Shown: positions 10,086-55,583 of the stretch, piece after piece | Numbering within the stretch: position 1 is the first letter of the stretch | How the letters are laid out: every line of letters starts with the position of its first letter | Origin: Patescibacteria group bacterium | GTDB lineage: Bacteria > Patescibacteriota > Patescibacteriia > UBA1558 > GWA2-36-10 | Length of the DNA: 64,000 nucleotides | Direction of reading: 5' to 3' | NCBI GenBank assembly: GCA_041650755.1 | Contig: JBAZKN010000001.1 | Location: forward strand, 136,080 to 200,079 | The notes under the pieces: model-generated | Databases searched by the model: none | What the model was told of the DNA's origin: nothing | The model's input: only the letters and a program-made list of their open reading frames with translations | Program-made: the position numbers and the translations under genes

Positions 10086-11579
10086 ATGCCCAGCAATTTT
10101 GAACAACCTAGAGAAGATAAGACGCCTTTTCATGAACAGCCGGAAACTATCCAGTCTGGTTCAAAATTTGATATTCTGAAATTGGGACGACCAAAATCCG
10201 TACAAGCGATAGACCAGGGGGAAATCAGAGAATTTGAACAAGCGTCTTTTGCTGTTACTGAATATTTTGTTGACAATGAAAAATATCTTGCCGAAGCTAC
10301 GGAGCTAAAAACATTTTTCCAGACCATCCAAGCTGAACTAGGCGAAACCATACCGACAACCTGGTTTGTGATTGGCCACCCGTCTGATCCAAAACGGAAA
10401 GGTGTTTCTTTGTATGCTATCCAGGATTTGGAACAATTTCAGGCTGAAGAGGGAGTGAAAACTTTACCAGAACTAAATCAAACCGAATTTTCTAAAAGTT
10501 TTTTGGAAAAACTTTTAGATATCCAACAGAAAATTTATCAACTACTTGAAAAGTTGGCCAAAGAAAATGACTTACCGATTGACAAACTTGATCCAGGGGC
10601 TTTGGACCCCAAGAGATTTAAAGAAGAGGTTGTTTATTCTCCGGATAGTGAAAATTTAGTGATTGCTAATTTATTTAATATTGATGCCAAAACCATCAAA
10701 GAAATTATCGGCAGTAAGGCTAAATTTGAAGGCACAAAATTATCCCAATTAAAATTAATAAAATTATTGGGCCTAGGCAGCATCGCAGAAAAAATAGATT
10801 GGTTTCTGGAAAGAAGCGCTGTTTTAGAATTTACTAAAAATAAACGTGCCCACAATCATCTCAATAAAGAAAAAATGCAAGCTCTTGGGCAAGAAGGCAA
10901 AAAGGCAATGGCCTTAACTTTTGATGATGGTCCCAATGAACAAACTGCCGAATTGCTGGACATTTTAAAGGCTGAAGGCGTCAAAGCTACATTCTTTTTA
11001 ACTGGTTCGATGATACCAGGACGAGAAGCTCTGGTGAAGCGTATGGTAGAGGAGGGCCACGAGGTTGGTGTACATGAATGGGGACACTTGACGCCCGACA
11101 TTAGTAAACTATTTACCGATCCAAAAAATTATGCAAAGGGGCGCTTTGTCGGCCCGAGGCCAGATTTGGGCGATATTCAAAAAACTTGCAACTTAATAGA
11201 ACAAATTACTGGTCAAAGGCCTACTATGGGTAGACTAGCCGGCGCGCATGGTACTTTAGATAGCTGGCGAGAATATGAACACATGGATTTAGATATTATT
11301 AACGCTCAAGCCTGGGACATCATGACTATGTTGCCACGTCGCAGATTAACTGCTAATATGCTGCTAAAAGCTGCCCTCTTGGGCAATAAACATGGCCAAA
11401 TCAGACTTTTTCATATTGGCTGCATGAAAGATAATAGCGAACCCCTAAGCCCAGACGAAATAAAGCGTGAAAAAGGCGAAGTTTATCCGCCAGAGGAAAC
11501 GGTAAAAATGATCCGAGAATACATCGAACGCAGCCGCCAGCAAGGATATGATTTTGTTGACTTAAGTGAAAATATATAA
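10086..11579 (+). CDS. two-domain protein: unknown N-terminal ~270 aa plus C-terminal NodB-type polysaccharide deacetylase
   Basis: TFDDGP, HEWGH motifs in C-terminal half. Confidence 0.65.
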   Translation: MPSNFEQPREDKTPFHEQPETIQSGSKFDILKLGRPKSVQAIDQGEIREFEQASFAVTEYFVDNEKYLAEATELKTFFQTIQAELGETIPTTWFVIGHPSDPKRKGVSLYAIQDLEQFQAEEGVKTLPELNQTEFSKSFLEKLLDIQQKIYQLLEKLAKENDLPIDKLDPGALDPKRFKEEVVYSPDSENLVIANLFNIDAKTIKEIIGSKAKFEGTKLSQLKLIKLLGLGSIAEKIDWFLERSAVLEFTKNKRAHNHLNKEKMQALGQEGKKAMALTFDDGPNEQTAELLDILKAEGVKATFFLTGSMIPGREALVKRMVEEGHEVGVHEWGHLTPDISKLFTDPKNYAKGRFVGPRPDLGDIQKTCNLIEQITGQRPTMGRLAGAHGTLDSWREYEHMDLDIINAQAWDIMTMLPRRRLTANMLLKAALLGNKHGQIRLFHIGCMKDNSEPLSPDEIKREKGEVYPPEETVKMIREYIERSRQQGYDFVDLSENI

Positions 11580-11581
11580 AA

Positions 11582-12691
11582 ATGTTCTACCAAAAAATAA
11601 TTCGGCCGATACTTTTTTTATTGTCCGCTGAAACGGCACACAACTTTACTATTGATTGTTTGCGTCTGTTTAACCGAAGTAAAATTTTATATAATTTTTT
11701 ATTTAAACTTTTAAATTATACTTCGCCGCGCCTAAAACAAAATTTGTTCGGCCAATATTTCCGAACTCCTTTGGGTTTGACTGCCGGCCTGGACAAAAAT
11801 GCCACCGTACCCAATGTCTGGTCAGCTTTTGATTTTGGCTTTACGGAAATTGGCTCAGTGACAGCCGTTGCCCAGCAAGGCAATCCTAAACCTCGCTTAT
11901 GGAGATTAAAAAAGGATTCGGCTCTGGTAGTTAATTATGGCCTGTCTAGTTTGGGCGCTGCCAAAATAGCCGAGCGTTTAAAAACCAGCCAAAAATATTA
12001 CAAAAACCGGGGAGTCAAAGTGATCAGTATAGCCAAAACTAGCTCTGTGCCCCCAGAGCAGGCGGCCGAGGATTATGCACAAAGTTTTGCTCTCCTGGCA
12101 CCGCTGGCTGATATTATCACCATCAATCTCAGCTGTCCGAATGTATCCGGTTTTTTGGGTTTGCAAAAAAAAGAATTATTGGAACCAGTCTTAAAAAAAA
12201 TTACCTCAATCAACAAAAAACAAAAACCCCTTTGGCTAAAGATCGGCCAGGATTTAAATAAACAAGAGCTGGATGATATTATTTATTTGGTAAAAAAATA
12301 CAGGATCGCTGCTATTATAGCGACCAATTTAGCCAAAGATAAAACTAAGCTCAATCTAATATCCGCCGCCAAAAATAATCCCGGCGGTATTTCCGGCCGG
12401 CCCATATCAGCTAGAGCCAACCAAATTATCGCTTATTTATATAAAAACAGCGACCACCAATACAAAATCATAGGCTGCGGCGGCATATTTTCAGGTAAGG
12501 ACGCTTATGATAAGATAAGAGCTGGCGCTGATTTATTACTATTAGCTACTGGTTTTATTTATGGCGGGCCAAATAGTATAAAAAAGATGAATCAAGACCT
12601 GGATAAATTGATTTCTCAAGATAATTTCTCTAACATTAGCCAAATAATCGGCATAAATGCACGCCAATATGAATTGGACGAGCGATCATAA
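11582..12691 (+). CDS. pyrD: dihydroorotate dehydrogenase (quinone), class 2
   Basis: NLSCPNV, GGISGRP, GCGGI motifs; N-terminal membrane-association helix. Confidence 0.85.
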   Translation: MFYQKIIRPILFLLSAETAHNFTIDCLRLFNRSKILYNFLFKLLNYTSPRLKQNLFGQYFRTPLGLTAGLDKNATVPNVWSAFDFGFTEIGSVTAVAQQGNPKPRLWRLKKDSALVVNYGLSSLGAAKIAERLKTSQKYYKNRGVKVISIAKTSSVPPEQAAEDYAQSFALLAPLADIITINLSCPNVSGFLGLQKKELLEPVLKKITSINKKQKPLWLKIGQDLNKQELDDIIYLVKKYRIAAIIATNLAKDKTKLNLISAAKNNPGGISGRPISARANQIIAYLYKNSDHQYKIIGCGGIFSGKDAYDKIRAGADLLLLATGFIYGGPNSIKKMNQDLDKLISQDNFSNISQIIGINARQYELDERS

Positions 12692-24911: not shown

Positions 24912-24945
24912 ATTAAAATAAAAATTGGCTAATATTAGCCAATTT
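24912..24945. terminator. bidirectional terminator: A-run, palindrome TTGGCTAATATTAGCCAA, T-run
   Basis: Perfect 18-bp palindrome flanked by AAAAA and TTTTT; same palindrome recurs at 43334-43351. Confidence 0.5.
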
Positions 24946-25004
24946 TTATATATAACATCTGCAAGGTGGCCACAACCTCGCAGGTGCCCTAATTTTTAAA
25001 CAAA

Positions 25005-44303: not shown

Positions 44304-45671
44304 CTACTTAGCCAGCTCGCGAGCTAAAGTATCAATATCGCCCGCGCCGATAAACAAAATCACTGCTTTGCTTGGATTAATCTGACGCAAAACTTTTTTG
44401 ATATCAGTAGTTTTTGGCGCATAATTAACCGGCGCATCCTTTATAAGGGCCACCAGATCCTGGCTGGAAACAGCCTCGTGCGCCTTGTCTTCCCGGCCAG
44501 CCACTTGATAAATATCAGTAATCACTACTTGATCTGCTTGCCTAAAACTAGCGGCAAATTCATGGAGCAGTGTCTGGGTGCGATTATGATGATGGGGCTG
44601 AAAAATAGCAATTATTTTTTTATTTGGATAAAATTCTTTTGTTGCTTGGAGTAGTCCCCGTATAGCATCCGGATGATGAGCATAATCAGAAATAATAATA
44701 TTGTTTTTCCATTGACCGACTGGCTCAAATCTGCGCCAGATGCCGCTAAAATCATGCAGGGCATTCCAGATTTGATGCTTGTTGATGCCTAAAGTGTCAG
44801 CCACAGCCACGGCTTGCAGGGCATTGTAAATATTATAGATGCCTGGCACAGCCAAATCAAAATCCGCTAAAAGTTTACGCTGATGATTGACGGAAAAATG
44901 CTGCTGGCCAGCTTGGCTAACTGGCGCTGAAAAATTATAATGAGCCGAATTTTCCCGGCCAACAGTGATGAGCTTGCCCGGCCAAACAATAGAGCGGCTG
45001 TTTTTATCGTCAGCATTTTTGACCAGCCAGCCGCCTTTGGGCAACTTATTGACGAACTTTTGAAAATGCTTTTTGATGTCACTTAAATCCCGAAAATAAT
45101 CCAGGTGATCCTCGGCAATATTGGTCAAAACTATGATCTGGGGATTTATCTCCAGCATATGCGCTTGCCACTCGCAAGCCTCAACCACCAGCCACTCACC
45201 CCTGCCAAAGCGAAAATTACTGCCCCACTGCGGCACCAGGCTGCCGACAATGACCATTGGGTCAAGACCGGCTTTTTCCATGATAAGACCTAGCATAGCT
45301 GTAGTGGTGGTCTTGCCATTAGTGCCGGCAACAGCGATGGTTTTATATTGTTTGCTCAAATAGCCTAAAAATTCAAAATAGCTTAAAACCGGAATTTTAA
45401 GTTTGCGGGCTTTTAAAAACTCCGGATGATCATCGGGCAGAGCTGAAGTATAAACAAACAAATCAATGTCGTTCGTAATATTGCTAGCTTTTTGCTTATA
45501 GTCCACCAGCACTCCCCGCTCTTCCAGTCGCCTGGTCACTTCGGATTTAAACAGATCAGAGCCCAGCACCTGCTTTTGCAATTGCAAAAAATAATAAGCC
45601 AGAGATGACAAACCAATGCCACCAATGCCGGATAGATAAACTTTATTTATTTTTTGGATGTCTAGATTCAT
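44304..45671 (-). CDS. murC: UDP-N-acetylmuramate--L-alanine ligase
   Basis: GIGGIGLS and GTNGKTTTTAM Mur ligase motifs. Confidence 0.9.
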   Translation of the reverse strand: MNLDIQKINKVYLSGIGGIGLSSLAYYFLQLQKQVLGSDLFKSEVTRRLEERGVLVDYKQKASNITNDIDLFVYTSALPDDHPEFLKARKLKIPVLSYFEFLGYLSKQYKTIAVAGTNGKTTTTAMLGLIMEKAGLDPMVIVGSLVPQWGSNFRFGRGEWLVVEACEWQAHMLEINPQIIVLTNIAEDHLDYFRDLSDIKKHFQKFVNKLPKGGWLVKNADDKNSRSIVWPGKLITVGRENSAHYNFSAPVSQAGQQHFSVNHQRKLLADFDLAVPGIYNIYNALQAVAVADTLGINKHQIWNALHDFSGIWRRFEPVGQWKNNIIISDYAHHPDAIRGLLQATKEFYPNKKIIAIFQPHHHNRTQTLLHEFAASFRQADQVVITDIYQVAGREDKAHEAVSSQDLVALIKDAPVNYAPKTTDIKKVLRQINPSKAVILFIGAGDIDTLARELAK

Positions 45672-45731: not shown

Positions 45732-46883
45732 TCATAATGATTTTTGGAATAAATTTAAAATTTTATAAGCTACTATTTCCCACGAATAATTATAAAAATT
45801 GCCGTTACCTTTAATATCATTTAATAGTATGGCTTTTTTTATTCCATAAGCCAATTCAGTGGGCGATGCCGATTCAACTACAATGATTTTATTATATTTT
45901 TTTAATACCTCATTAGATCCGACGGATTTGGTTGTTATTATTGTTTTATTTAAAATAGCTGCCTGGATATTAATCATACCAAATGGTTCATATAAGGAGG
46001 GTGAAATAACGATGGAAGATATATTCAGTAACTTAAACATATTAAATTGATTTATGTGGCCAATGAATCGTATCCTGTCATTAAGATTGTTTGTTTCTAT
46101 ACATTTTTTAATTGATTCAAAATATAAAAAATCAAATACCTTGCCGGCAACCAATAAATAAAAATTGATATCTTCTTCTAATAAACTCAAAGATTGAATC
46201 AGATATATCAAACCTTTTTGTGGCACAATTCTACCAGCATAAACCAAAACACAATCCTTAGAATCTATTAAATATTTCTTTTTTAAATAATTTATTTCTG
46301 TTGCGGAGGATATTTTTCTGAAATCTTGAGTATCTATGCCACCACATACTACCTTAATCTTATTGGTTTGAATATTGTAAAATTTCACCAACTCTTCTGC
46401 CATTAAGTTTGACTTGACAAAAACATTAGTACAATAATGTAATAATCTTTTTTCTAAAATAATTAATGGTATATTAACCATTTTTTTAATAAAACCGATC
46501 CTTAAGTCATACCATCTGTAACAATTGGAGATACCTCTAATTGTGCTACGACTAAAATAAAAAAGTGGAGTTTTAATTTTTGTAAAATTTAATAGACCAA
46601 ATTCTAGTGATTGAATATAGATTATGTCATAATTATTTAAATTATTTTTATCGGAAAAATTTTTTAGTTTAAAGTAATAATCAATAATGTCAAGAAATGG
46701 TTTATCTATTTTTGGTAAATAAACAAATTTAATTTTATTATTTAAGATAACACTATCTTCTTTATGTGCGCACACAACTGTCACATTGTGTCCTTTTTTA
46801 AAAAATTCATCTGCCTCTTTATATGCTGAATATCCCAAACCATAACCAGAGCCATAAAAAGAAGTAAAAATAATTATATTCAT
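45732..46883 (-). CDS. GT4-family glycosyltransferase (very AT-rich gene)
   Basis: GT-B two-domain pattern with C-terminal EPFGM motif; ~25% GC. Confidence 0.55.
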   Translation of the reverse strand: MNIIIFTSFYGSGYGLGYSAYKEADEFFKKGHNVTVVCAHKEDSVILNNKIKFVYLPKIDKPFLDIIDYYFKLKNFSDKNNLNNYDIIYIQSLEFGLLNFTKIKTPLFYFSRSTIRGISNCYRWYDLRIGFIKKMVNIPLIILEKRLLHYCTNVFVKSNLMAEELVKFYNIQTNKIKVVCGGIDTQDFRKISSATEINYLKKKYLIDSKDCVLVYAGRIVPQKGLIYLIQSLSLLEEDINFYLLVAGKVFDFLYFESIKKCIETNNLNDRIRFIGHINQFNMFKLLNISSIVISPSLYEPFGMINIQAAILNKTIITTKSVGSNEVLKKYNKIIVVESASPTELAYGIKKAILLNDIKGNGNFYNYSWEIVAYKILNLFQKSL

Positions 46884-47545
46884 TTTTTCATAAAATGATT
46901 AAGCATGTGAATGCGAAGTAGTTCCGCTATTTCGTTTAACTTTTCAATAGATAAATTTTTCTTTTGTAAAGCTTTGGCTGGTTTTAATTCGGGACATTTT
47001 TTAAGAATATTGATCAGCCCTGATTTAAAATTTAAATCAAAATCTCCGTATAAAAACAATACCTCTAATAAAGCAACCTTTAACCAACTTCTATATTTTT
47101 CACGCCAAAAATCATCATTTTTGTTATTTATATACACACCCCTAATACCTTGCGAAAGATCAACTATCCTTTTATAAATGTCTATGGGTTTAGCATCTTT
47201 TATATTTACATTTCGGATCACATCCTCACCCCAAAGCAATTCATTAACTAATTTGATACCAATAAAATATGTCGGCGGACGATAAATATGCCAACGCCTT
47301 ATAAACTCACTGTAAAACACCACATTAATGTCTGTCTTGGTATTTATTTTTCTTGCTTTTATTTTAATCTTTTTTAAAAAATGATGGGGTTCTTCTATGT
47401 CTTTACAAATAAACAAAACATCTATGTCGCTTTTCCCTTCTCTAAACCTATCACTCAAGACACTACCATATATATAGGCTGACTTAATTTCGTGAAAAGC
47501 AACATAATTTTTTTTAAGCTCTTTTTTCAAATTGTTGAGATCCAT
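46880..47545 (-). CDS. Pol-beta superfamily nucleotidyltransferase, ANT/Lnu-like (aminoglycoside/lincosamide nucleotidyltransferase-like)
   Basis: YIYGSVLSD...GKSDIDVLF (GS..D.D) motif; start reassigned to MDLNNL at 47545, 1 nt after upstream stop. Confidence 0.6.
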   Translation of the reverse strand: MDLNNLKKELKKNYVAFHEIKSAYIYGSVLSDRFREGKSDIDVLFICKDIEEPHHFLKKIKIKARKINTKTDINVVFYSEFIRRWHIYRPPTYFIGIKLVNELLWGEDVIRNVNIKDAKPIDIYKRIVDLSQGIRGVYINNKNDDFWREKYRSWLKVALLEVLFLYGDFDLNFKSGLINILKKCPELKPAKALQKKNLSIEKLNEIAELLRIHMLNHFMKK

Positions 47546-47546
47546 A

Positions 47547-48407
47547 TTAAATTTGCTTAAACATAAAATAAATTTTTTTATGTTCTTCTTTATCATTATA
47601 ATAGCTAAGTAGCAGGGGTTTAAATAAAATAAAATATTGTTTTTCCCAAAATTCAACCGTGTCTTTTAACAATTTTTTGTGGGGGTGTTTTTTTATTCTT
47701 TCAATATATATTTTTAAATTGTGAAATTTGTTATTAATAATGCTATCTATAAATTTATAACTTAATCCATTTTTTTCCGCAATAACAATGTTATTATAAG
47801 AATTTTTTACAAAATCCTCTTCGGTGGTCATTATGTCATCAAGCAAGTCCCGCAGTCTTTGGAATTCATTAAAAAATAATTTTGCATTATGTAAATCTTC
47901 GACAGATAGAACGCTGCCAAATTTATTAATTATCTCGTCTACTAGTAAAAAATAATCGCTGGGTCTAATTTCTATTATCTTGCGTAATTTATTTTCAAAA
48001 TTATGGTCTTTTTTAATATGTAAATCTAGTTCCAGTTTAAATAAGCTGGCAATCTCTTTAAATTTTTTATCTGCTTTTTCAAAATTATTTATTTGTTCTT
48101 TAATTTTACTTATTGGCAGGGGATTCTTTTTATATAATTTTTCATCTAAAATATCATCAACATTTCTTATTTTACAATCCATCTCTATTAAATAATAAAT
48201 GTCGGGATAATTTTTTTTAATCTCATTAAGGCTATCGACTAAGGGGGTAATTAGTAGTGAGCTATAATCATAGGGCATATTGGCTCCTAAATAAAAAATC
48301 GCTTTTTTTATGGATCCCCTAACTGTTTTTAAAACCTTATTCAAATTACTTTTATAAATATTATTTTGCGTAACCATGTAACTTAAACGAATTAATTGTT
48401 GATCCAT
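47547..48407 (-). CDS. hypothetical protein (286 aa), translationally coupled to downstream nucleotidyltransferase
   Basis: ORF only; stop 1 nt from NTase start codon. Confidence 0.4.
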   Translation of the reverse strand: MDQQLIRLSYMVTQNNIYKSNLNKVLKTVRGSIKKAIFYLGANMPYDYSSLLITPLVDSLNEIKKNYPDIYYLIEMDCKIRNVDDILDEKLYKKNPLPISKIKEQINNFEKADKKFKEIASLFKLELDLHIKKDHNFENKLRKIIEIRPSDYFLLVDEIINKFGSVLSVEDLHNAKLFFNEFQRLRDLLDDIMTTEEDFVKNSYNNIVIAEKNGLSYKFIDSIINNKFHNLKIYIERIKKHPHKKLLKDTVEFWEKQYFILFKPLLLSYYNDKEEHKKIYFMFKQI

Positions 48408-49218
48408 TTTTGATATATCCTAATTTTTTATTATTATTTTCTTCATAGCTATGAAAATCAGAGCCGCCTGTAAAATACCAATTATTCTTTTGCGCCAGGT
48501 TTTTTAGAATATTGATTTGTTCATCGCTCAATTCTGGATGGTATATTTCTATGCCGTCAAGCCCCAGACCAACTAGCTGCTTTATACTGGTAACGTCCAG
48601 AGGCTTAGCAAACTTATTAACAGGATTAAAAGGATGGGCCAAAATCAAATCCTCAGTTATTTTTCTAAAATTATCTATAATCCACTCAACTTCAACACCA
48701 CCTCGACGCACATAACATGGAGCACCAGGTGCCTGATAGGTATTATAAAATTGTTCCGGTGATTGTCCGCTTATTTTATCTAAATTTTTCGGATTATTAT
48801 ATATATCTAGCGCTATGGTCAATCCGACCGGCTGTTCTTTTTTTATTTTTAACCCATTGTTTACCGTAAAACCATTTTGTTTAAAAAGTTTTTTAGCCAA
48901 TTCAAACTCACTAAATTTTTTCTGTTCAGTAATCTTTTGTTTTTTCTGCAAAATTCCTTTAATCTCAGTAATTTTAAAATTATAAGCTAAGATATGCACT
49001 ACTTTCTGTTTATATAAAGCCATTAATTCCACCCCCGGAATCACTATGATATCCTGGCCTTTTAGATATTTTTTTAATTCAGTAATACCAGCCACCGTAT
49101 CATGATCAGTTAATGAACAATATTTAAGTTTACTCTTTTTTATTAGGGCCGCCAGCTCTGATGTGGTTAGTTTTCCATCTGAATAAATAGAATGAAAATG
49201 TAAATCAATTTTAGACAT
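48361..49218 (-). CDS. PHP-domain phosphoesterase
   Basis: DLHFHSIYSDG and TDHD metal-binding motifs. Confidence 0.7.
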   Translation of the reverse strand: MSKIDLHFHSIYSDGKLTTSELAALIKKSKLKYCSLTDHDTVAGITELKKYLKGQDIIVIPGVELMALYKQKVVHILAYNFKITEIKGILQKKQKITEQKKFSEFELAKKLFKQNGFTVNNGLKIKKEQPVGLTIALDIYNNPKNLDKISGQSPEQFYNTYQAPGAPCYVRRGGVEVEWIIDNFRKITEDLILAHPFNPVNKFAKPLDVTSIKQLVGLGLDGIEIYHPELSDEQINILKNLAQKNNWYFTGGSDFHSYEENNNKKLGYIKNGSTINSFKLHGYAK

Positions 49219-49235
49219 GGTGATTAAATAAAAAG

Positions 49236-50264
49236 TTATTTTTCGTAAGTATTACTTAAAAAAGTCCGCAGACTATCAAGCTCTTCGTTGAGACCATTTC
49301 TTACTCTAATATAAAATTGCTCTTCAGTAGTTGAGTGCTCTTGATTTGGTATATTGTTTAATACTCGCAATCTCCACAAGATTGAATTAACAAGCACTAG
49401 TGTTTCATAAACACTAAGTCGATCTTTAAAATATTTATCTTTTTTAGGAAGTCTTTTTTCATATTCGACAAGAAATTCTTCTCTCTGTTCATCATTAAAA
49501 TTAAGTTTTAGAAATAACTTAGCAATATCCATGGCACTATCCCCGGCAGAGGCCTGCGCCCAATCAATAAAAATAATTTTACCAGAATTCTTTGACCGTA
49601 AGATGTTATTACGATTCAAATCAAAATGAATGAGCGTAAAATTATTATTTTGGAAAGTATCCGCTTTTTCTTCAGCTTCGTTTTTTGCTTGATCAATGGC
49701 TTGCTCAATAAGTGGTGTTATCTCTGGAAAATTTGGTAAAGAAGATAAAGATTCGCGCAATTTATCAATTCCATCATTAAGGCAATCCTTTTGCGTGCCT
49801 TTTTTCCTTTGCGTTAATGGCTTACCATAGGCGTGTAATTCTATTGAATGAATCTTGGCAATAGTTTCTGCTAATTGAGCAATGGTAATTTTATCAAAAA
49901 TATCTATGGGGCTTCCTTCAATTTCTTCCTCAAAAATAATATTAGTCGATTTTAAATATCCCATCAAACGAGGTGTTTCTTCAAAGCCGCGCACACGCAA
50001 TAAACGCAAGGCCACATTTTCATGTTTTGCACGGTCAACGTCCTGTTTTGGATTTTTCCAAACTTTGGCAATTACTCGCTGCTCACTATTTGGCAATTCA
50101 AAAATCAAGGCGGAGCTGCCTTCGGCAAAAGGATGACCACTAAGTAACTTACTTAGGTCTTCCGACGTTAAACCAAGATCATTAATGGTCTTTATTTCAC
50201 TCTCAGTTAGACCTAAATTTTTAACCGAATCTTTTGTTTCTGGTGGTTTATAATACTCGTTCAT
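49236..50264 (-). CDS. APH/choline-kinase-like phosphotransferase (protein-kinase fold)
   Basis: Brenner motif HFDLNRNN and IDW (DFG-equivalent). Confidence 0.6.
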   Translation of the reverse strand: MNEYYKPPETKDSVKNLGLTESEIKTINDLGLTSEDLSKLLSGHPFAEGSSALIFELPNSEQRVIAKVWKNPKQDVDRAKHENVALRLLRVRGFEETPRLMGYLKSTNIIFEEEIEGSPIDIFDKITIAQLAETIAKIHSIELHAYGKPLTQRKKGTQKDCLNDGIDKLRESLSSLPNFPEITPLIEQAIDQAKNEAEEKADTFQNNNFTLIHFDLNRNNILRSKNSGKIIFIDWAQASAGDSAMDIAKLFLKLNFNDEQREEFLVEYEKRLPKKDKYFKDRLSVYETLVLVNSILWRLRVLNNIPNQEHSTTEEQFYIRVRNGLNEELDSLRTFLSNTYEK

Positions 50265-50316
50265 ATCAATGTTTAAAGAACATTTTTTTAGTTTCTGGGT
50301 TCATTTATTATTATAG

Positions 50317-51129
50317 CTATTTTATATCCCTGGTAAAAACACCAGCGCCATACAATTGTTCAACAAGTTCAGTGCGATCAGGATTTAAAACCAACATTTG
50401 TTCGTAAATTTCTTGACCACTCAAGGCTCGCTTCACGCCATGCTTATCATTAATACGGTGCAAAGCATCATAAACATCAGCTAAGGCCAAAACCCTACCA
50501 TACTCTTTTATCAATCCCACTGTGTCCTCTCCGTATTTATGAAGATAATCCGGCAGTTCTGTTGGATATGGTTTAGCTTGAGAAAGATGATGCCGCAACA
50601 CCACTTCAGCAGTAAAGTCAAATTCATCACGTAGTAATTCATAACTTTTTTTCACATGACCCTGAACAAGAGCCGTATCTTGATCAGTCCAACCTTCAGT
50701 TTTTGCCAAAGTAGAAATGGGCACTGCCGCTTTACCAATATCATGCAACAAACCAGCATAAAGCAGAGCCTTTTCATCAATGCCCATGAATTTTGCAATT
50801 TGTCGCGCTATCAAGCCCACCCTAAGAGAATGTTCATACGAACCTTGGTGTTTGACTTTAATAAGATCTAAATAGATTTGGACGGCTTGCCGTTTATCTG
50901 GTCCGATTTGTAGTTCATCCATATCTGCCAAAACACGGTCTTCTAAACTCATACTTGGATCAAAATAAGCCACAAATTCCGGGGTCACCGGTTTATCCTT
51001 AGTCCCAATATCATGAGCCCTTATCATAAGTTCTCTTTGTCCGGCAAAACTTTGCTGATCAAGAGCATCTATGATTGGCTCAACTTGTTTTACTGGCACT
51101 CCAGTATTATGATCAAATGATTCTGTCAT
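50317..51129 (-). CDS. HD-domain phosphohydrolase, HD-GYP-like with degenerate GYP
   Basis: HSLRV...LLHDIGK...RHHL(x5)YP. Confidence 0.6.
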   Translation of the reverse strand: MTESFDHNTGVPVKQVEPIIDALDQQSFAGQRELMIRAHDIGTKDKPVTPEFVAYFDPSMSLEDRVLADMDELQIGPDKRQAVQIYLDLIKVKHQGSYEHSLRVGLIARQIAKFMGIDEKALLYAGLLHDIGKAAVPISTLAKTEGWTDQDTALVQGHVKKSYELLRDEFDFTAEVVLRHHLSQAKPYPTELPDYLHKYGEDTVGLIKEYGRVLALADVYDALHRINDKHGVKRALSGQEIYEQMLVLNPDRTELVEQLYGAGVFTRDIK

Positions 51130-51132
51130 ATT

Positions 51133-51300
51133 TTAACAAATAATTTTCTTAATCACCTTAATATAATTTTCCGTCGCTTGAGGAGGAAATAAATTATGCA
51201 AATTTTCACCCAAAGCTGTCCGCCAAGTATCGTTGACCATCAATTTATAAATATATCGATCCATAATCTGGTGATTGCCCTGACGGACATAGGCGGCCGC
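51133..51300 (-). pseudogene. detached duplicate of murG 3' end (last ~56 codons) with altered tail
   Basis: 146 bp identical to 54589-54734 inside murG; frame continues to stop at 51133. Confidence 0.7.
51155..51300. repeat. 146-bp perfect direct repeat, copy A
   Basis: Exact match to 54589-54734. Confidence 0.85.
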
Positions 51301-51447
51301 TTGCGAATGAACAAAAAAATTAAAAAAATCACGGCCAGCACCAGAATAGAAATTAAAATATAAATTTGCCCTGTATTCATAATGTTTTATTATATTACAA
51401 ACTTTTATTTATAATAACACAATTTTAATATTTTGCTAATTATAATA

Positions 51448-52113
51448 CTACGGATATTTTAAAGATGACACACTGCTAATTATCTGATCAACCAAGGCAT
51501 CAATATCAAAATCTTGCCTTTCGTCAACGCAGGCGGTCTGCTCCGGCTCGAAATAATTTTGACATTGCGGATAGCGTAAGGTAAAAGTGATATTTAAAAG
51601 CTTGCTCTTCCAAGGAGTCGTATATCTATAGCTAGTATACACCGAGCCCACTGCACCCTCGCTAGACATGGCAATACAATAAGTGCGATTATTAATCTTG
51701 CGCTCTATTGTCCTGGCAGCTAAACTGCTGGTCTGGTCAGTAGGCTGACAAGTATACGGCTGATTAATAACGCTGACTATTGGCGGCCAATCTTCAGTAA
51801 AAATATATTTTTTACCCAAATCCTTTGGGTATCTAAAACTAATATTTTTCTCTCGATCAGTATCAGTGTAGCTTAGCCAATTCGTAGGCGTGGTATCCCC
51901 AGGACAAGGCGCAAATTCACAGGCGGGTGGAACGCGACCCACAAATGATCCATCTGGGCACTCCTTGACTTCTGCAGTACAGTACACTTCTTGATTTTTA
52001 GAATTATTTTTGTCGCTTTGATTTATCGGCGGTTTTTTATTTCGCAAAAAATAAAACGCAGCGCTGGCTATCAGGGCCAAAATTATTATAATAATAAATA
52101 TATTGTTTTTCAT
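51448..52113 (-). CDS. secreted/membrane-anchored Cys-rich hypothetical protein
   Basis: N-terminal TM/signal, several CxxC-like pairs. Confidence 0.45.
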   Translation of the reverse strand: MKNNIFIIIIILALIASAAFYFLRNKKPPINQSDKNNSKNQEVYCTAEVKECPDGSFVGRVPPACEFAPCPGDTTPTNWLSYTDTDREKNISFRYPKDLGKKYIFTEDWPPIVSVINQPYTCQPTDQTSSLAARTIERKINNRTYCIAMSSEGAVGSVYTSYRYTTPWKSKLLNITFTLRYPQCQNYFEPEQTACVDERQDFDIDALVDQIISSVSSLKYP

Positions 52114-52130
52114 GTTTTACTTTTAAAATT

Positions 52131-52496
52131 TTATTTATTTCTAATATTTGTCTTGGGAAAATCCAGCAAGCAATCACAGGGCTTTTTCTTGAGAATCTGT
52201 TTTTGTTCGGCAATGGTGTTTAAAAAAACTTTTTGTCCACCCGAGCCAGTGGCTAAGCGCTTGTCCAGTGGGGAGAGATGTTGATATCCTCGTCTCTTAA
52301 ATTCTGTTACCAAGGCTTTGTGTCTCTGATAAAGCGCCTTATTTTTACCAACCCAGCGCAAGGTTTCGGGATGACGCGAATATCCGCCCCTGCCTTTGTG
52401 CTTTGTCAAAATATTCCACAAACCATGCAGCTCGCGGTGTTCAGCCAGCAGATGCTTGCGGCATAACTGTTTTGGGTGAATGTCCCAAACGCGCAT
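52131..52496 (-). CDS. pyrimidine dimer DNA glycosylase (T4 endonuclease V / Pdg family)
   Basis: HLLAEHRELHGLW resembles T4 endoV HLMAEYRELPRVFG active-site region. Confidence 0.55.
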   Translation of the reverse strand: MRVWDIHPKQLCRKHLLAEHRELHGLWNILTKHKGRGGYSRHPETLRWVGKNKALYQRHKALVTEFKRRGYQHLSPLDKRLATGSGGQKVFLNTIAEQKQILKKKPCDCLLDFPKTNIRNK

Positions 52497-52499
52497 GAG

Positions 52500-52874
52500 T
52501 TATTTTATAATTTCTATTTTAAAATATTTTTCTTGAAAATCAATTAATTTTTTGATTTCTTCCACGCTAAAATCCATGCCGTCTGGCGCAAGTACTAGCT
52601 TATCCTCGTTATCATCAAGTCGATGAATTATGGCAATGCATTTACCCGTAAAAGTCGGCAAGGCACGATCAACACCTAAAACATAAACATCAACCGGCTC
52701 GCCATTGCCTGCCTTGGTATCGGGTAAATACCCATAGTTTATGGGATAAACAGTTTCAGGATAATCGGGATGTATGAAGCCAAACGGCCTATCTATAACT
52801 ACTGTTATTTTTTTACCCAAGTATTGGCTATAATCCATTTTAAATTTTAATGATTTTACGCGTGTCTTCAGCAT
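52500..52874 (-). CDS. truncated family I inorganic pyrophosphatase-like protein
   Basis: YPINYGYLPDT...GEPVDVYVLG matches PPase YP.NYG.IP.T..DGDP.DVLV core. Confidence 0.5.
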   Translation of the reverse strand: MLKTRVKSLKFKMDYSQYLGKKITVVIDRPFGFIHPDYPETVYPINYGYLPDTKAGNGEPVDVYVLGVDRALPTFTGKCIAIIHRLDDNEDKLVLAPDGMDFSVEEIKKLIDFQEKYFKIEIIK

Positions 52875-53421
52875 TAGTAAATAAATAAGCTTTTATACCC
52901 AGCTCTTTAGCCGCCTCAACATTCTCCTGCGAATTATCAAAATAAAAACAATCTTCTGGCCGCAAATTATTTTCTGTCAAAATATTCTCATAGGCCTGCT
53001 TGTCTGGTTTGACAAAACCAGTGTTCCAAGAATAATAAACCTTAATAAAAAGCTCATCTAAAAATGGGAGGGTCTTTTTATAATACTCGGCTCGTTCGAC
53101 AAAATTATTGGACAAAACAAATAATCTATAGCCTGCTGCTTTTAATTCTCTGGCTAAGGCCACCATTTCTGTGTTTTCTTTTTCTGCGGAAAACCAAAAA
53201 TCAAAAAATTGTTGTTCGCTCATTTCTAGACCCAATTTTTTTAAATACGGCTGCCAGTACTGAAAACTAATGGCTGTTTTAGAAATACGGGCTTTGGCTA
53301 GGACATCTTTTAGGGCTGGTAAAAATTCTTCGGGGCCGATACCAAGTTCATTGGCAAATCTTTCACTAAGCAGTTGACCCTGAATTAAAATACCATTGAG
53401 ATCAAAAATAATTGTAGTCAT
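52840..53421 (-). CDS. HAD-superfamily hydrolase
   Basis: N-terminal IIFDLNGIL motif I and C-terminal acidic motif. Confidence 0.6.
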   Translation of the reverse strand: MTTIIFDLNGILIQGQLLSERFANELGIGPEEFLPALKDVLAKARISKTAISFQYWQPYLKKLGLEMSEQQFFDFWFSAEKENTEMVALARELKAAGYRLFVLSNNFVERAEYYKKTLPFLDELFIKVYYSWNTGFVKPDKQAYENILTENNLRPEDCFYFDNSQENVEAAKELGIKAYLFTNAEDTRKIIKI

Positions 53422-53425
53422 GTGA

Positions 53426-53887
53426 TTATTTTTTAGGCTTGTCTTTTTCGACTAACTCCAATAGATATTTCAAGATTTCGTAATCCCTAAAATCTTCGTA
53501 CGTAGACCAGTCTATGAAATTATAAGCAGCGAAGCATACGACTAAACAAAAAAAGAAAATTAATAGATCTAATGGCCAACTAATACCCAAAATGTATTTT
53601 GTTATGATTGAAGCCGCAATACCTCCAAATATACCGAGGATTAAACCCAAAAAAAGAGAACCAGCGTTTATTCTATTTTGTTTAATGTCGCTAAAAACAT
53701 TCTGTATCCCCCTACTCTTGATTTCCATTAAATCATGATACTTGTCAATAACACTTCTGCGCTGTTCTAGAGAAAGTTTGCGCCACAAATTATTGTTAGA
53801 CATCTTCAAGGCTTTAGCTAATTGCTTTTGATATTGATATTGTTGATTTTTAGAATGCATAATAATTATTTTACACCCAAAAGTCAA
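53426..53887 (-). CDS. small membrane protein, hypothetical
   Basis: Two predicted TM helices. Confidence 0.4.
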   Translation of the reverse strand: MTFGCKIIIMHSKNQQYQYQKQLAKALKMSNNNLWRKLSLEQRRSVIDKYHDLMEIKSRGIQNVFSDIKQNRINAGSLFLGLILGIFGGIAASIITKYILGISWPLDLLIFFFCLVVCFAAYNFIDWSTYEDFRDYEILKYLLELVEKDKPKK

Positions 53888-53928
53888 AAAACTTTTGAAC
53901 TTTAAACTTGCTAACCTTTTAACTGGTT

Positions 53929-54537
53929 CTATCTATTCTTTGGTGTCCAGACATTTTCCCACCACTCTGAAACTTTACCGGACAGTATAGCTTTGCCCAA
54001 TTTTTTGGCTGACTCGGTTTTTAAATTCTGATACTGCACATTCTCCTTATTATCAGCCCCCTTGCCTGTGAGCCAAATTTCTGCCTCTTTATTGCCTTGA
54101 TGCGCATATTCTTTGAGTAAAAGCATCTGATCAATCAGGTCAGCATCTTTGGCTATGATAGCTACTTGGCTCTGACGAGCTTCATACTCTTCATTCAATT
54201 CATAAAGGTCGGTAAAAGGCAAAGAGCCTAGCTGATCTTTAGCAATTTCTTCTTCAAAAATCTTGACGTATTTTTTGTGCACATAATTATGATCACCGCT
54301 TCTCACTTCTTTGATATCATGAAGCAGACCCATCGTAACTGCTTTATAAGGATCAGAGTTTTCCATCTTGGCCAAAAACCAAGCAATCACTGCCACCCGA
54401 TAAGAGTGTGAAGCAATATTATCAGACAAGTCTTGTGATAAAAGCATCTGCTGGTGAATGCGCGGCAATTTTTTCATTGTGCCAATTTCAAAAAGAAAAT
54501 CGATAATTGTCTTGAGATCTTTTTCTGATGCACTCAT
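53929..54537 (-). CDS. HD-domain 5'-deoxynucleotidase-like (YfbR family)
   Basis: HSYRVAVIAW...LLHDIKEVRSGD. Confidence 0.6.
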   Translation of the reverse strand: MSASEKDLKTIIDFLFEIGTMKKLPRIHQQMLLSQDLSDNIASHSYRVAVIAWFLAKMENSDPYKAVTMGLLHDIKEVRSGDHNYVHKKYVKIFEEEIAKDQLGSLPFTDLYELNEEYEARQSQVAIIAKDADLIDQMLLLKEYAHQGNKEAEIWLTGKGADNKENVQYQNLKTESAKKLGKAILSGKVSEWWENVWTPKNR

Positions 54538-54563
54538 AATTTTACAATAATAATTAAAAATAA

Positions 54564-55583
54564 TTATTTATTAAGTACTGACCTTATTACCTTAATATAA
54601 TTTTCCGTCGCTTGAGGAGGAAATAAATTATGCAAATTTTCACCCAAAGCTGTCCGCCAAGTATCGTTGACCATCAATTTATAAATATATCGATCCATAA
54701 TCTGGTGATTGCCCTGACGGACATAGGCGGCCGCATTGTGTTTGGCAAAAAATTCGGCATTTTTTTCTTGATGGCTGCCGGGGATTGGCACCAATACTAG
54801 AGCCTTGCACAAAGCCGCCGCTTCAGTAATCAAAGACATACCAGCCCGAGAAATAATAATGTCAGCCCTGGCCAAAAGATCCAGCATGCTGCCAGCAACA
54901 AAACGATGCGCTATATAGCCAGGCAGATCCAATCTTTGCTCCCAGTTGTCATTGCCCAAAATATGATGCACTTCATATTTTTCTAAGATTTTTGGGATAA
55001 AGCTGGCTACAAAATCATTTAAACCCCGCGCGCCCAATCCTCCGCCAGTAATAACTACGAGAGGCTTCTCATTGCTAGCAGATTGGCAACGGCGCACTGG
55101 ATTGCCGGTCAAGACTGCTTTTTTTATAGGAAAATATTTTAGCTGCTCGGCAAAAGTCACGGTAACCTTGGTAGCCAAAGTAGCCATAATCTTATTGGCT
55201 AAACCCAATTTGATATCTTGCTGATGAACTACCACTGGCACGCCGCTCAATTTGGCAGCCAGCGCTACCGGAACAGCCACAAAGCTGCCGGCAGTAAGAA
55301 CAATATCAGGCTTAAATTGACGGATTATTTTCAGACTCTGCCAGATGCCAACTTTGGTTTTATATATATCACGAAAATTCTGCCAGCTAAAATAACGCCG
55401 CCACTTGCCAGCGGCAATAGCTCGAAAGGCAATGTTCTGCCGCAAAACTACTTCTTTTTCCGGGCCAGTTTGGCTACCGACAAATAAATACCGGGTCGGC
55501 AATTGTTCGGCAATACTAAGTAATGGACTCACTGAACCTAGTGTCCCGCCGCCAGCTAATATGATGCGCAAATCATCGGTCAT
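54564..55583 (-). CDS. murG: UDP-N-acetylglucosamine--N-acetylmuramyl-(pentapeptide) pyrophosphoryl-undecaprenol N-acetylglucosamine transferase
   Basis: ILAGGGTLGS N-term, GT28 C-terminal domain; dcw context. Confidence 0.85.
   Translation of the reverse strand: MTDDLRIILAGGGTLGSVSPLLSIAEQLPTRYLFVGSQTGPEKEVVLRQNIAFRAIAAGKWRRYFSWQNFRDIYKTKVGIWQSLKIIRQFKPDIVLTAGSFVAVPVALAAKLSGVPVVVHQQDIKLGLANKIMATLATKVTVTFAEQLKYFPIKKAVLTGNPVRRCQSASNEKPLVVITGGGLGARGLNDFVASFIPKILEKYEVHHILGNDNWEQRLDLPGYIAHRFVAGSMLDLLARADIIISRAGMSLITEAAALCKALVLVPIPGSHQEKNAEFFAKHNAAAYVRQGNHQIMDRYIYKLMVNDTWRTALGENLHNLFPPQATENYIKVIRSVLNK
54589..54734. repeat. 146-bp perfect direct repeat, copy B (within murG 3' end)
   Basis: Exact match to 51155-51300. 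Confidence 0.85.

Follow-up and report, generated by a model that had tools for sequence, protein, structure and literature searches.

How did a second, incomplete copy of the end of murG come to lie 3.4 kb from the first, and does it mark the edge of a mobile element or the scar of a rearrangement? The question is raised by a 64,000-nt stretch (hereafter, the window) of contig JBAZKN010000001.1 (positions 136,080 to 200,079 of the forward strand; assembly GCA_041650755.1) from a Patescibacteria group bacterium, in which a 146-bp direct repeat of part of murG brackets a six-gene segment within the division and cell wall (dcw) gene cluster. Based on the junctions of the repeat and the gene order of related loci, we consider it probable that illegitimate recombination left this feature as a scar in an old, hypervariable array of genes, and that it is not a mobile element with its attachment (att) site.

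The repeat and its junctions

The two copies, at 51155-51300 and 54589-54734, have the same orientation and are identical over 146 bp, with mismatches at the first bases beyond each end. They form the sole exact direct repeat of at least 30 nt in the 64-kb window, and a chance origin is excluded. The 100% identity indicates only that the event is younger than roughly 1% divergence. A third, degenerate copy was searched for at the murC end of the array and was not found. The identity is limited to the 146 bp and the flanks are unrelated on both sides, which argues against a simple tandem duplication. The features that meet at the repeat are given below in their transcriptional order; L001, L056, L058 and similar labels designate the loci of relatives that were compared with the window.

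54564..55583, minus strand: murG, 339 aa, with Pfam PF03033 and PF04101 (Glyco_transf_28 N and C), downstream of mraY-murD-ftsW
54589..54734, minus strand: repeat copy B, spanning codon 284 through base 2 of codon 332 in the intact 339-aa murG
54564..54588, minus strand: tail B, the last 7 codons and the stop of murG, reading ..NYIKV IRSVLNK-stop, with a 26-nt spacer and then HD_YfbR
51301..51380, minus strand: smp81' stump, 26 codons and 2 nt of a small membrane-protein gene, by homology to an 81-aa protein of L058
51155..51300, minus strand: repeat copy A, an orphan murG 3' fragment with the murG body missing upstream
51133..51154, minus strand: tail A, the 22 nt beyond the orphan repeat, reading ..NYIKV IKKIIC-stop

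An earlier reading made from the letters of the window (hereafter, the sequence-only reading) had reported the repeat as perfect, which proved correct, and had described copy B as continuous with the murG body, in agreement with its position inside the 339-aa open reading frame (ORF) at 54564-55583. Its description of the repeat as the last ~50 codons of murG needed correction, as copy B ends 7 codons ahead of the murG stop (22-25 nt from the gene end) and these final 7 codons differ. The murG frame of copy A does run to a new stop, as had been noted, with 6 extra codons leading to a stop at 51133-51135, 3 nt before the ATG of the next gene (HDIG). The 46-aa ORF (51240-51380) that had been seen to read across the junction does cross it, at 51300/51301, though it shares the minus strand with murG, in a different frame, and does not lie on the other strand as had been stated.

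This mini-ORF starts with MNTGQIYILISILVLAVIFLIFLFIRK, and its first 26-28 residues are 64% identical over 28 aa to the N-terminus of the L058 81-aa protein, which has two transmembrane segments. The smp81' stump matches this protein with a pairwise E-value of 8e-12 (DNA identity 75% over 79 nt), and the homology to the intact L058 gene ends exactly where the repeat begins. The mini-ORF thus represents what is left of the 5' part of a gene, smp81, that was cut short. At the junction of smp81' with the repeat, the comparison with L058, a single locus of a distant relative, allows at most 1 nt of possible microhomology.

Inside copy A, the Prokaryotic Genome Annotation Pipeline (PGAP) calls a 43-aa ORF (51133-51264), annotated as hypothetical (MFA5126549.1). 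When proteins are clustered at 90%, this ORF groups with full-length MurG and serves as the representative of their cluster, and the real MurG is therefore missing from homology search listings. An exact look-up of the MurG sequence gave no record. The orphan is probably non-functional, and both MFA5126549.1 and the 46-aa membrane mini-ORF would be by-products of the rearrangement and not genes. The murG gene itself would be intact with a slightly different 7-residue tail, and smp81 would be inactivated.

Tails A and B both fit the MurG tail pattern of ~100 homologues. Compared in register with the MurG tails of L001, L002 and L056, tail A has 13-14 of 21 nt in common and its stop falls at the same codon, a match with P 0.0005-0.003 when tested against random 21-mers from the region. 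The 21 nt of tail A can also be aligned with the 3' end of a Band_7 gene and the spacer before HDIG in L058 and L061 (19 of 23 columns, P ~0.002-0.006). On these alignments, tail A may be an old MurG tail, or it may be what remains of the 3' end of Band_7 and the leader of HDIG. Both readings stand at P ~0.001-0.006 on 21-25 AT-rich bases, and this is the chief reason why the mechanism below is proposed only tentatively. A derivation of tail B from tail A by a ~27-nt insertion was considered as well and is ruled out by L056 and L057, which share the tail, a ~30-nt spacer and the HD_YfbR layout.

Gene order in relatives and a proposed history

The genes around the repeat are all on the minus strand, in the order mraY, murD, ftsW, murG, 8.9 kb of accessory genes, murC, murB, rpsM and rpsK. 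The proteins of the window are the NCBI entries MFA51265xx (locus tags WC465_) on a 405,237-bp contig. The sequence-only reading had described the six genes between the repeats correctly, as both Pfam and NCBIfam agree. What it lacked was the wider context, that is, a variable 8.9-kb array in a tight dcw cluster, with the orphan located where relatives carry four or five further genes. Below, GC3 is the guanine-cytosine (GC) content at third codon positions.

53929..54537, minus strand: YfbR-like HD phosphohydrolase (HD_YfbR; Pfam HD_3, YfbR-like)
53426..53887, minus strand: membrane protein of unknown family, 153 aa as listed and 144 aa in the ENA gene call
52840..53421, minus strand: HAD-IA family phosphatase (Pfam, NCBIfam)
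52500..52874, minus strand: short inorganic-pyrophosphatase-like (PPase-like) protein (Pfam PF00719)
52131..52496, minus strand: pyrimidine-dimer DNA glycosylase (Pdg, endonuclease V type; Pfam PF03013)
51448..52113, minus strand: secr221, an N-terminally anchored secreted protein, no family found by Pfam
50317..51129, minus strand: HDIG / HD-GYP-like phosphohydrolase, the first gene past the orphan (Pfam, NCBIfam)
45732..50264, minus strand: APH/choline-kinase-like protein, PHP phosphoesterase, unknown 286-aa protein, nucleotidyltransferase and GT1 glycosyltransferase (GC3 0.21-0.28)
44304..45671, minus strand: murC, the neighbour of murG in most relatives

In ~25 related loci, murC follows 0-40 nt past murG (L003, L006, L007, L010, L026-L035 and others), the exceptions being L001/L002 and L004/L025. 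The former pair carries one inserted gene (~11017-11656) that reads like a histidine phosphatase (PGAM-type, judged by translation), and the latter carries a single PPase-like insert (L004 11008-11343; 54% identity to the gene in the window) between murG and murC. Given these repeated inserts, the murG-murC junction is a site of repeated gene insertion in this Parcubacteria clade. The array in the window is unusually large compared with the relatives, in a dcw cluster that is otherwise tight. None of the ~25 related loci has a duplicated murG end, and the relatives with small inserts are likewise without repeats.

On the murG side of the segment, L056 and L057, which belong to another Parcubacteria lineage, have the order mraY-murD-ftsW-murG (339 aa)-31 nt-HD_YfbR-secr221 homologue, collinear with window positions 60280-53929 and 51972-51482. 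Their HD_YfbR is 84% identical to that of the window, the closest among the best 120 of 881 homologues, and their MurG is just 59% identical. Since murG-HD_YfbR-secr221 is common to these loci, the run from murG through tail B and HD_YfbR to secr221 is an old chromosomal order and not the product of recent delivery by an element.

On the murC side, the closest HDIG homologues (62-68%) are preceded by Band_7 in L058, L059, L060 and L061, and L062 and L063 carry the sequence of L061 upstream of HDIG. HDIG is directly followed by murC-murB-infA-rpsM in L061 and L062, and one 549-aa gene separates HDIG from murC in L058. The full orders are Fic-HD_YfbR-...-p384-PQ-loop-smp81-p95-GDSL-AT3-C39-Band_7-HDIG-p549-murC in L058 and ...p384-Pdg (82% to the Pdg of the window)-p96-GDSL-AT3-p289-Band_7-HDIG-murC in L061. 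HD_YfbR, Pdg, smp81, HDIG, murC and murB match between the window and L058/L061 in order and orientation. Neither the last two-thirds of smp81 nor the four or five genes that end with Band_7 were found anywhere in the 64-kb window, and no murG fragment was detected upstream of HDIG in L058-L063. The genes at 45732..50264 (APH-like to GT1) are absent between HDIG and murC in L061 and L062. Judged by synteny, the orphan murG piece thus sits exactly on what would be a deletion seam. The L058 contig (Ga0376277_0000288, 295 kb) starts ~500 nt upstream of Fic-HD_YfbR and carries no murG; this break at the equivalent place might reflect a repeat or a rearrangement at the murG end of that genome.

From these sequence comparisons we infer an ancestral order, a single-event history and a template-switch mechanism. 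The ancestral order, by synteny, would have been murG-HD_YfbR-...-Pdg-secr221-smp81-(~four or five genes ending in Band_7)-HDIG-...-murC. One recent local event would have removed smp81 from codon 27 onward up to just upstream of HDIG, and would also have put at the seam a copy, in the same orientation, of the 146-bp murG segment 3.4 kb upstream. The mechanism could have been template switching during replication or repair, with two switches and little or no microhomology; an equivalent route would be an unequal illegitimate crossover that gave a 3.4-kb tandem duplication, followed by deletion. Such a local event, by either route, is the origin that we tentatively prefer, with somewhat less than even confidence.

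A local origin explains every common gene order by descent, without a hypothetical donor. Several points weigh against it. Tail A resembles genuine MurG C-terminal tails in register and length; were it one of these, a copy made purely locally from the present murG should end in tail B instead. A local event requires two novel junctions, and microhomology at them cannot be shown because the ancestral sequence is not known. The synteny draws on distant relatives (MurG ≤71%) with very different arrays, which leaves the ancestral order insecure. In addition, the available assemblies do not prove that all four junctions lie on a single molecule.

The sequence-only reading had also proposed that the repeats make the segment excisable. 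RecA could indeed delete or amplify the 3.4-kb unit via the 146-bp copies, and a deletion would leave murG ending in tail A. The feature is of an ordinary kind, a recombination scar with an orphan gene fragment, in a setting that is interesting but not unprecedented. The fast-turnover array between murG and murC appears to be driven by illegitimate recombination and not by mobile elements, and the locus offers one dated snapshot of the dcw cluster being broken open in ultra-small Patescibacteria.

Assembly evidence and alternative origins

Three contigs of an independent MEGAHIT k141 assembly at ENA (ERZ27247363) match the window with 0 mismatches, each ending 141 nt into the repeat. The first, of 3,570 bp, corresponds to window positions 51160-54729 (3,288 bp of unique sequence with 141 nt of the repeat at either end), and the other two, of 250 kb and 215 kb, stop at 51295 and 54594, respectively. 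Two Logan k31 contigs (SRR8542065), one per outer flank, stop 30 nt into the repeat. All four unique/repeat junctions, including that of smp81' with the repeat, are therefore real as k-mer paths. The resulting graph is a chromosome path plus a loop, which fits the integrated form and a 3.4-kb circle with an empty site alike, and the 405-kb NCBI/JGI contig is the only one that threads both repeat copies. The two-copy integrated arrangement is the most likely, because the loop is without replication or integration functions and murG-HD_YfbR is conserved chromosomally elsewhere. Short Illumina reads are typically ~150 nt long, barely exceeding the 146-bp repeat, and few would span it. A repeat of about short-read length leaves a graph loop that assemblers resolve differently, so users of metagenome-assembled genomes should hold the join as unverified.

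The sequence-only reading had weighed recent recombination against an assembly artefact, and both stay live options. If the graph loop were taken literally, the chromosome would read murG-repeat-tail A-HDIG (the empty site) and be accompanied by a 3,434-bp circle, or filled and empty forms would be mixed. The composition of the 3,570-bp contig, the breaks of the two long MEGAHIT contigs and both flanking Logan contigs inside the repeat, and the topology of the graph are all compatible with this. We nevertheless regard it as very unlikely, given that the unit encodes neither a replication nor an integration function, that the continuity of murG and HD_YfbR is a conserved chromosomal arrangement in L056/L057, and that the 405-kb contig runs through both copies. 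Moreover, some molecule must carry the junction of smp81' with the repeat, and a circle unable to replicate would not be maintained at a coverage high enough for assembly. Another suggestion of the sequence-only reading, an integrative element that had brought a replacement 3' end, found little in its favour beyond the architecture, with murG-derived direct repeats on both sides of the segment, a murG whose 3' end is altered but intact, and a displaced copy farther downstream. The 146 bp would then be attL and attR of an integrase-mediated element, or of a cis-mobilisable remnant at the murG 3' end, with the recombinase acting in trans. No integrase, excisionase, transposase or Rep was detected by Pfam, PHROGs and NCBIfam among the 13 genes of the segment and the 8.9-kb murG-murC region (a scan of the genes from 45732 to 55583, not of the rest of the genome), consistent with the earlier remark that the segment holds no integrase. 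PHROGs gave only generic HD, HAD and endonuclease V family matches to the segment genes, and the segment DNA had no similarity to 50,697 phage and 72,556 plasmid records. Instead of a clean attP, the distal junction cuts a resident gene, smp81, after 26 codons, where L058 has the intact 81-aa homologue. The cargo is not conserved as a unit either: HD_YfbR and secr221 follow murG in the chromosomal order of L056/L057, HAD and secr221 are adjacent in L046, Pdg stands alone in L047-L051 and L061, and the PPase-like gene stands alone in L004/L025. Neither a third repeat copy nor repeats around the small inserts of relatives were found. Without a recombinase, with a truncated distal gene and a non-unitary cargo, the segment fails the defining features of an integrative element; an origin of this kind is extremely unlikely, and the 3.3-kb segment does not belong in mobile-element catalogues.

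An exchange between two alleles would account for tail A in another manner. Two very close genomes, one with murG(tail B)-HD_YfbR...smp81... and the other with murG(tail A)-HDIG...murC, would have recombined, as in the displacement of 3' tips at rhs loci or in homology-facilitated illegitimate recombination (HFIR), through a homologous anchor (in murG or on the murC side) at one end and an illegitimate join in smp81 at the other. The alternative is a single crossover within the 146 bp by which a circularised fragment integrated, and in both cases a displaced murG 3' end (the 146 bp with its own tail and stop) would stay at the seam. The architecture is like that of rhs loci, with a full gene, a downstream fragment with an identical partial core, another tip and a low-GC trough (PMC2935791), and a model for HFIR is available (PMC5361080). 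Tail A is in register with the MurG tails of the closest relatives and stops at the same codon, its 3-nt spacing from stop to ATG is like the native murG-murC junctions of L003 and L006, one novel junction suffices, and the genes past HDIG look foreign (GC3 0.21-0.28). An exchange, however, needs a conspecific murG-HDIG adjacency, and every relative with an HDIG homologue has Band_7 there. No conspecific or near-conspecific genome was found, as none exceeds 71% MurG identity among GTDB representatives, JGI metagenome contigs, 90% protein clusters and a search of 5.8 billion proteins. The tips are merely 6-7 residues long and functionless, with nothing to select for their exchange, and the similarity of tail A is explained as well by HDIG leader sequence. 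We therefore consider a two-allele exchange rather unlikely. In a broader form, recombination anchored in the murG 3' end would make the murG-murC junction of this clade a dedicated exchange hotspot, where arrays, each bringing a murG tail of a few codons, are swapped or stacked; this is distinctly unlikely, and if true, it would amount to a recombinase-free, Rhs-like tip displacement on a housekeeping cell-wall gene, with the orphan as the first caught intermediate. Less probable again, below even the literal loop, is that an old displaced murG end was kept identical by gene conversion and that a later deletion fused the orphan to smp81. The sharp end of the identity where homology ends (smp81') or falls very low (the tails) is what heterology-limited tracts would give; however, no relative retains the orphan, lasting 100% identity of a 146-bp non-functional fragment is an extra assumption, and the deletion is still needed.

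Accessory genes of the array and known systems

HD_YfbR has 881 homologues at E ≤1e-20, with 69-84% identity among the best 120 of them, and these matches point to a highly conserved Patescibacteria protein. It is much better conserved than its cell-wall enzyme neighbours (69-84% among the best 120, versus ≤71% for MurG). Its contexts vary, the gene upstream being murG in L056/L057, dnaA-dnaN on the contig carrying P0019 and a Fic gene in L058. The 153-aa membrane protein had no match in Pfam, PHROGs or NCBIfam. A homologue of the HAD gene in L046 (68% over the 76 aa present on the contig) lies directly upstream of a secr221 homologue, and Pdg homologues (82-83%) occur in unrelated contexts in L047-L051, as well as in the array of L061 upstream of HDIG.

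Homologues of secr221 were found after HAD in L046 (86%) and after HD_YfbR in L056/L057 (68%). The L056/L057 homologue (302 aa; L056 10637-11545) has a C-terminal domain (..IKGGESL..WWFDANL..CxPACVV..INWRC) that in L046 is a separate, N-terminally anchored 211-aa gene (929-1564) just downstream of the homologue at 245-913. Judged by these alignments, the difference between L056 and L046 points to fused genes, or to a split one, in an uncharacterised family of secreted proteins. A reading of the mini-ORF as the start of a secr221 paralogue, or of one of the L046 211-aa gene, was rejected, the alignments being at chance level. A 20/26-nt match between the signal-anchor coding region of secr221 and the edge of the murG repeat equals a dozen chance matches and was dropped.

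The cargo of the insertion hotspot is rich in small phosphohydrolases on the same strand as the mur genes, here YfbR-like HD, HAD, PPase-like, HDIG and PHP, with the PGAM-type-like gene in L001/L002 and the PPase-like gene in L004/L025. In sliding windows, the GC content lies at 0.42-0.46 along the genes from murG to mraY and at 0.23-0.45 in the array. The six genes between the repeats have a GC3 of 0.31-0.48, and those past the orphan have one of 0.21-0.30. Three genes at 45732-48407 (GT1, nucleotidyltransferase and the 286-aa protein) have a GC of 0.25-0.28 and a GC3 of 0.21-0.28, versus ~0.42 for most other genes of the window. Since HDIG abuts murC in L061/L062, this block looks like a separate, more foreign insertion, to which the APH-like kinase and PHP genes probably belong as well. 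Between the ORFs at 46880-47656 and 47547-48407 there is an overlap of 110 nt; as the nucleotidyltransferase has a later start in the ENA gene call (221 aa), the long TTG-start ORF is probably an over-extension.

Rfam and tRNA scans of the murG-murC region gave no hits, and promoter and terminator scans gave only weak consensus matches. Elsewhere in the window, the other exact match of at least 30 nt is a palindrome near 24918. It is a near-perfect, AT-rich palindrome of ~36 nt (24914-24951; AAAATAAAAATTGGCTAATATTAGCCAATTTTTAT), intergenic between ORFs, and looks like a bidirectional terminator hairpin.

Several known systems resemble the locus in part. At rhs loci, dissociated C-terminal tips are found as a full gene plus a downstream fragment with an identical core, a different tip and low GC (Jackson et al. 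2009, PMC2935791), and orphan modules are known from contact-dependent inhibition (CDI) and type VI secretion system (T6SS) loci (Kirchberger et al. 2017, PMC5361080). For rhs and T6SS loci, either homologous recombination by way of circular intermediates or HFIR has been proposed (PMC2935791, PMC5361080). The murG locus is alike in having murG and then a downstream fragment with 146 bp identical and a differing tail (IKKIIC versus IRSVLNK), a lower-GC region and no recombinase. Unlike in these systems, the gene is a housekeeping glycosyltransferase, the tips are 6-7 residues without toxin or immunity function, and the downstream genes encode phosphohydrolases, a glycosylase and membrane or secreted proteins in place of immunity genes. 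There is also a single orphan and no array of them, with no orphan in any relative examined, and the synteny favours a local deletion seam over the acquisition of a new tip as in rhs.

In natural transformation, HFIR has been described by de Vries & Wackernagel (2002), Prudhomme et al. (2002) and Meier & Wackernagel (2003), as cited in PMC5361080 (see also PMC3240628). At the murG locus, homology could account for one of the junctions (in register within murG, or towards murC), and the other, which truncates a gene, is illegitimate and appears to have little or no microhomology. The canonical outcome of HFIR, however, is an insertion plus a deletion without a direct repeat, unless the incoming fragment began inside murG.

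Genomic islands and integrative elements at gene 3' ends, including integrase-less elements mobilisable in cis, carry direct repeats of the 3' part of the target and keep the gene intact. Likewise, repeats of the 3' part of murG bracket a multi-gene segment and murG is intact, but a recombinase is lacking, 22-25 nt separate the repeat from the gene end, the distal end truncates a resident gene and the cargo is a conserved chromosomal neighbourhood and not a transferable unit. Bacterial illegitimate recombination, in models of the microhomology-mediated break-induced replication (MMBIR) type, gives templated insertions at deletion junctions, or tandem duplication followed by deletion. Although a copy of 146 bp would be long for one templated patch, the locus shares with template switching a short copy in direct orientation, matching a stretch a few kb away and placed exactly at the proposed deletion seam, with no mobile-element genes.

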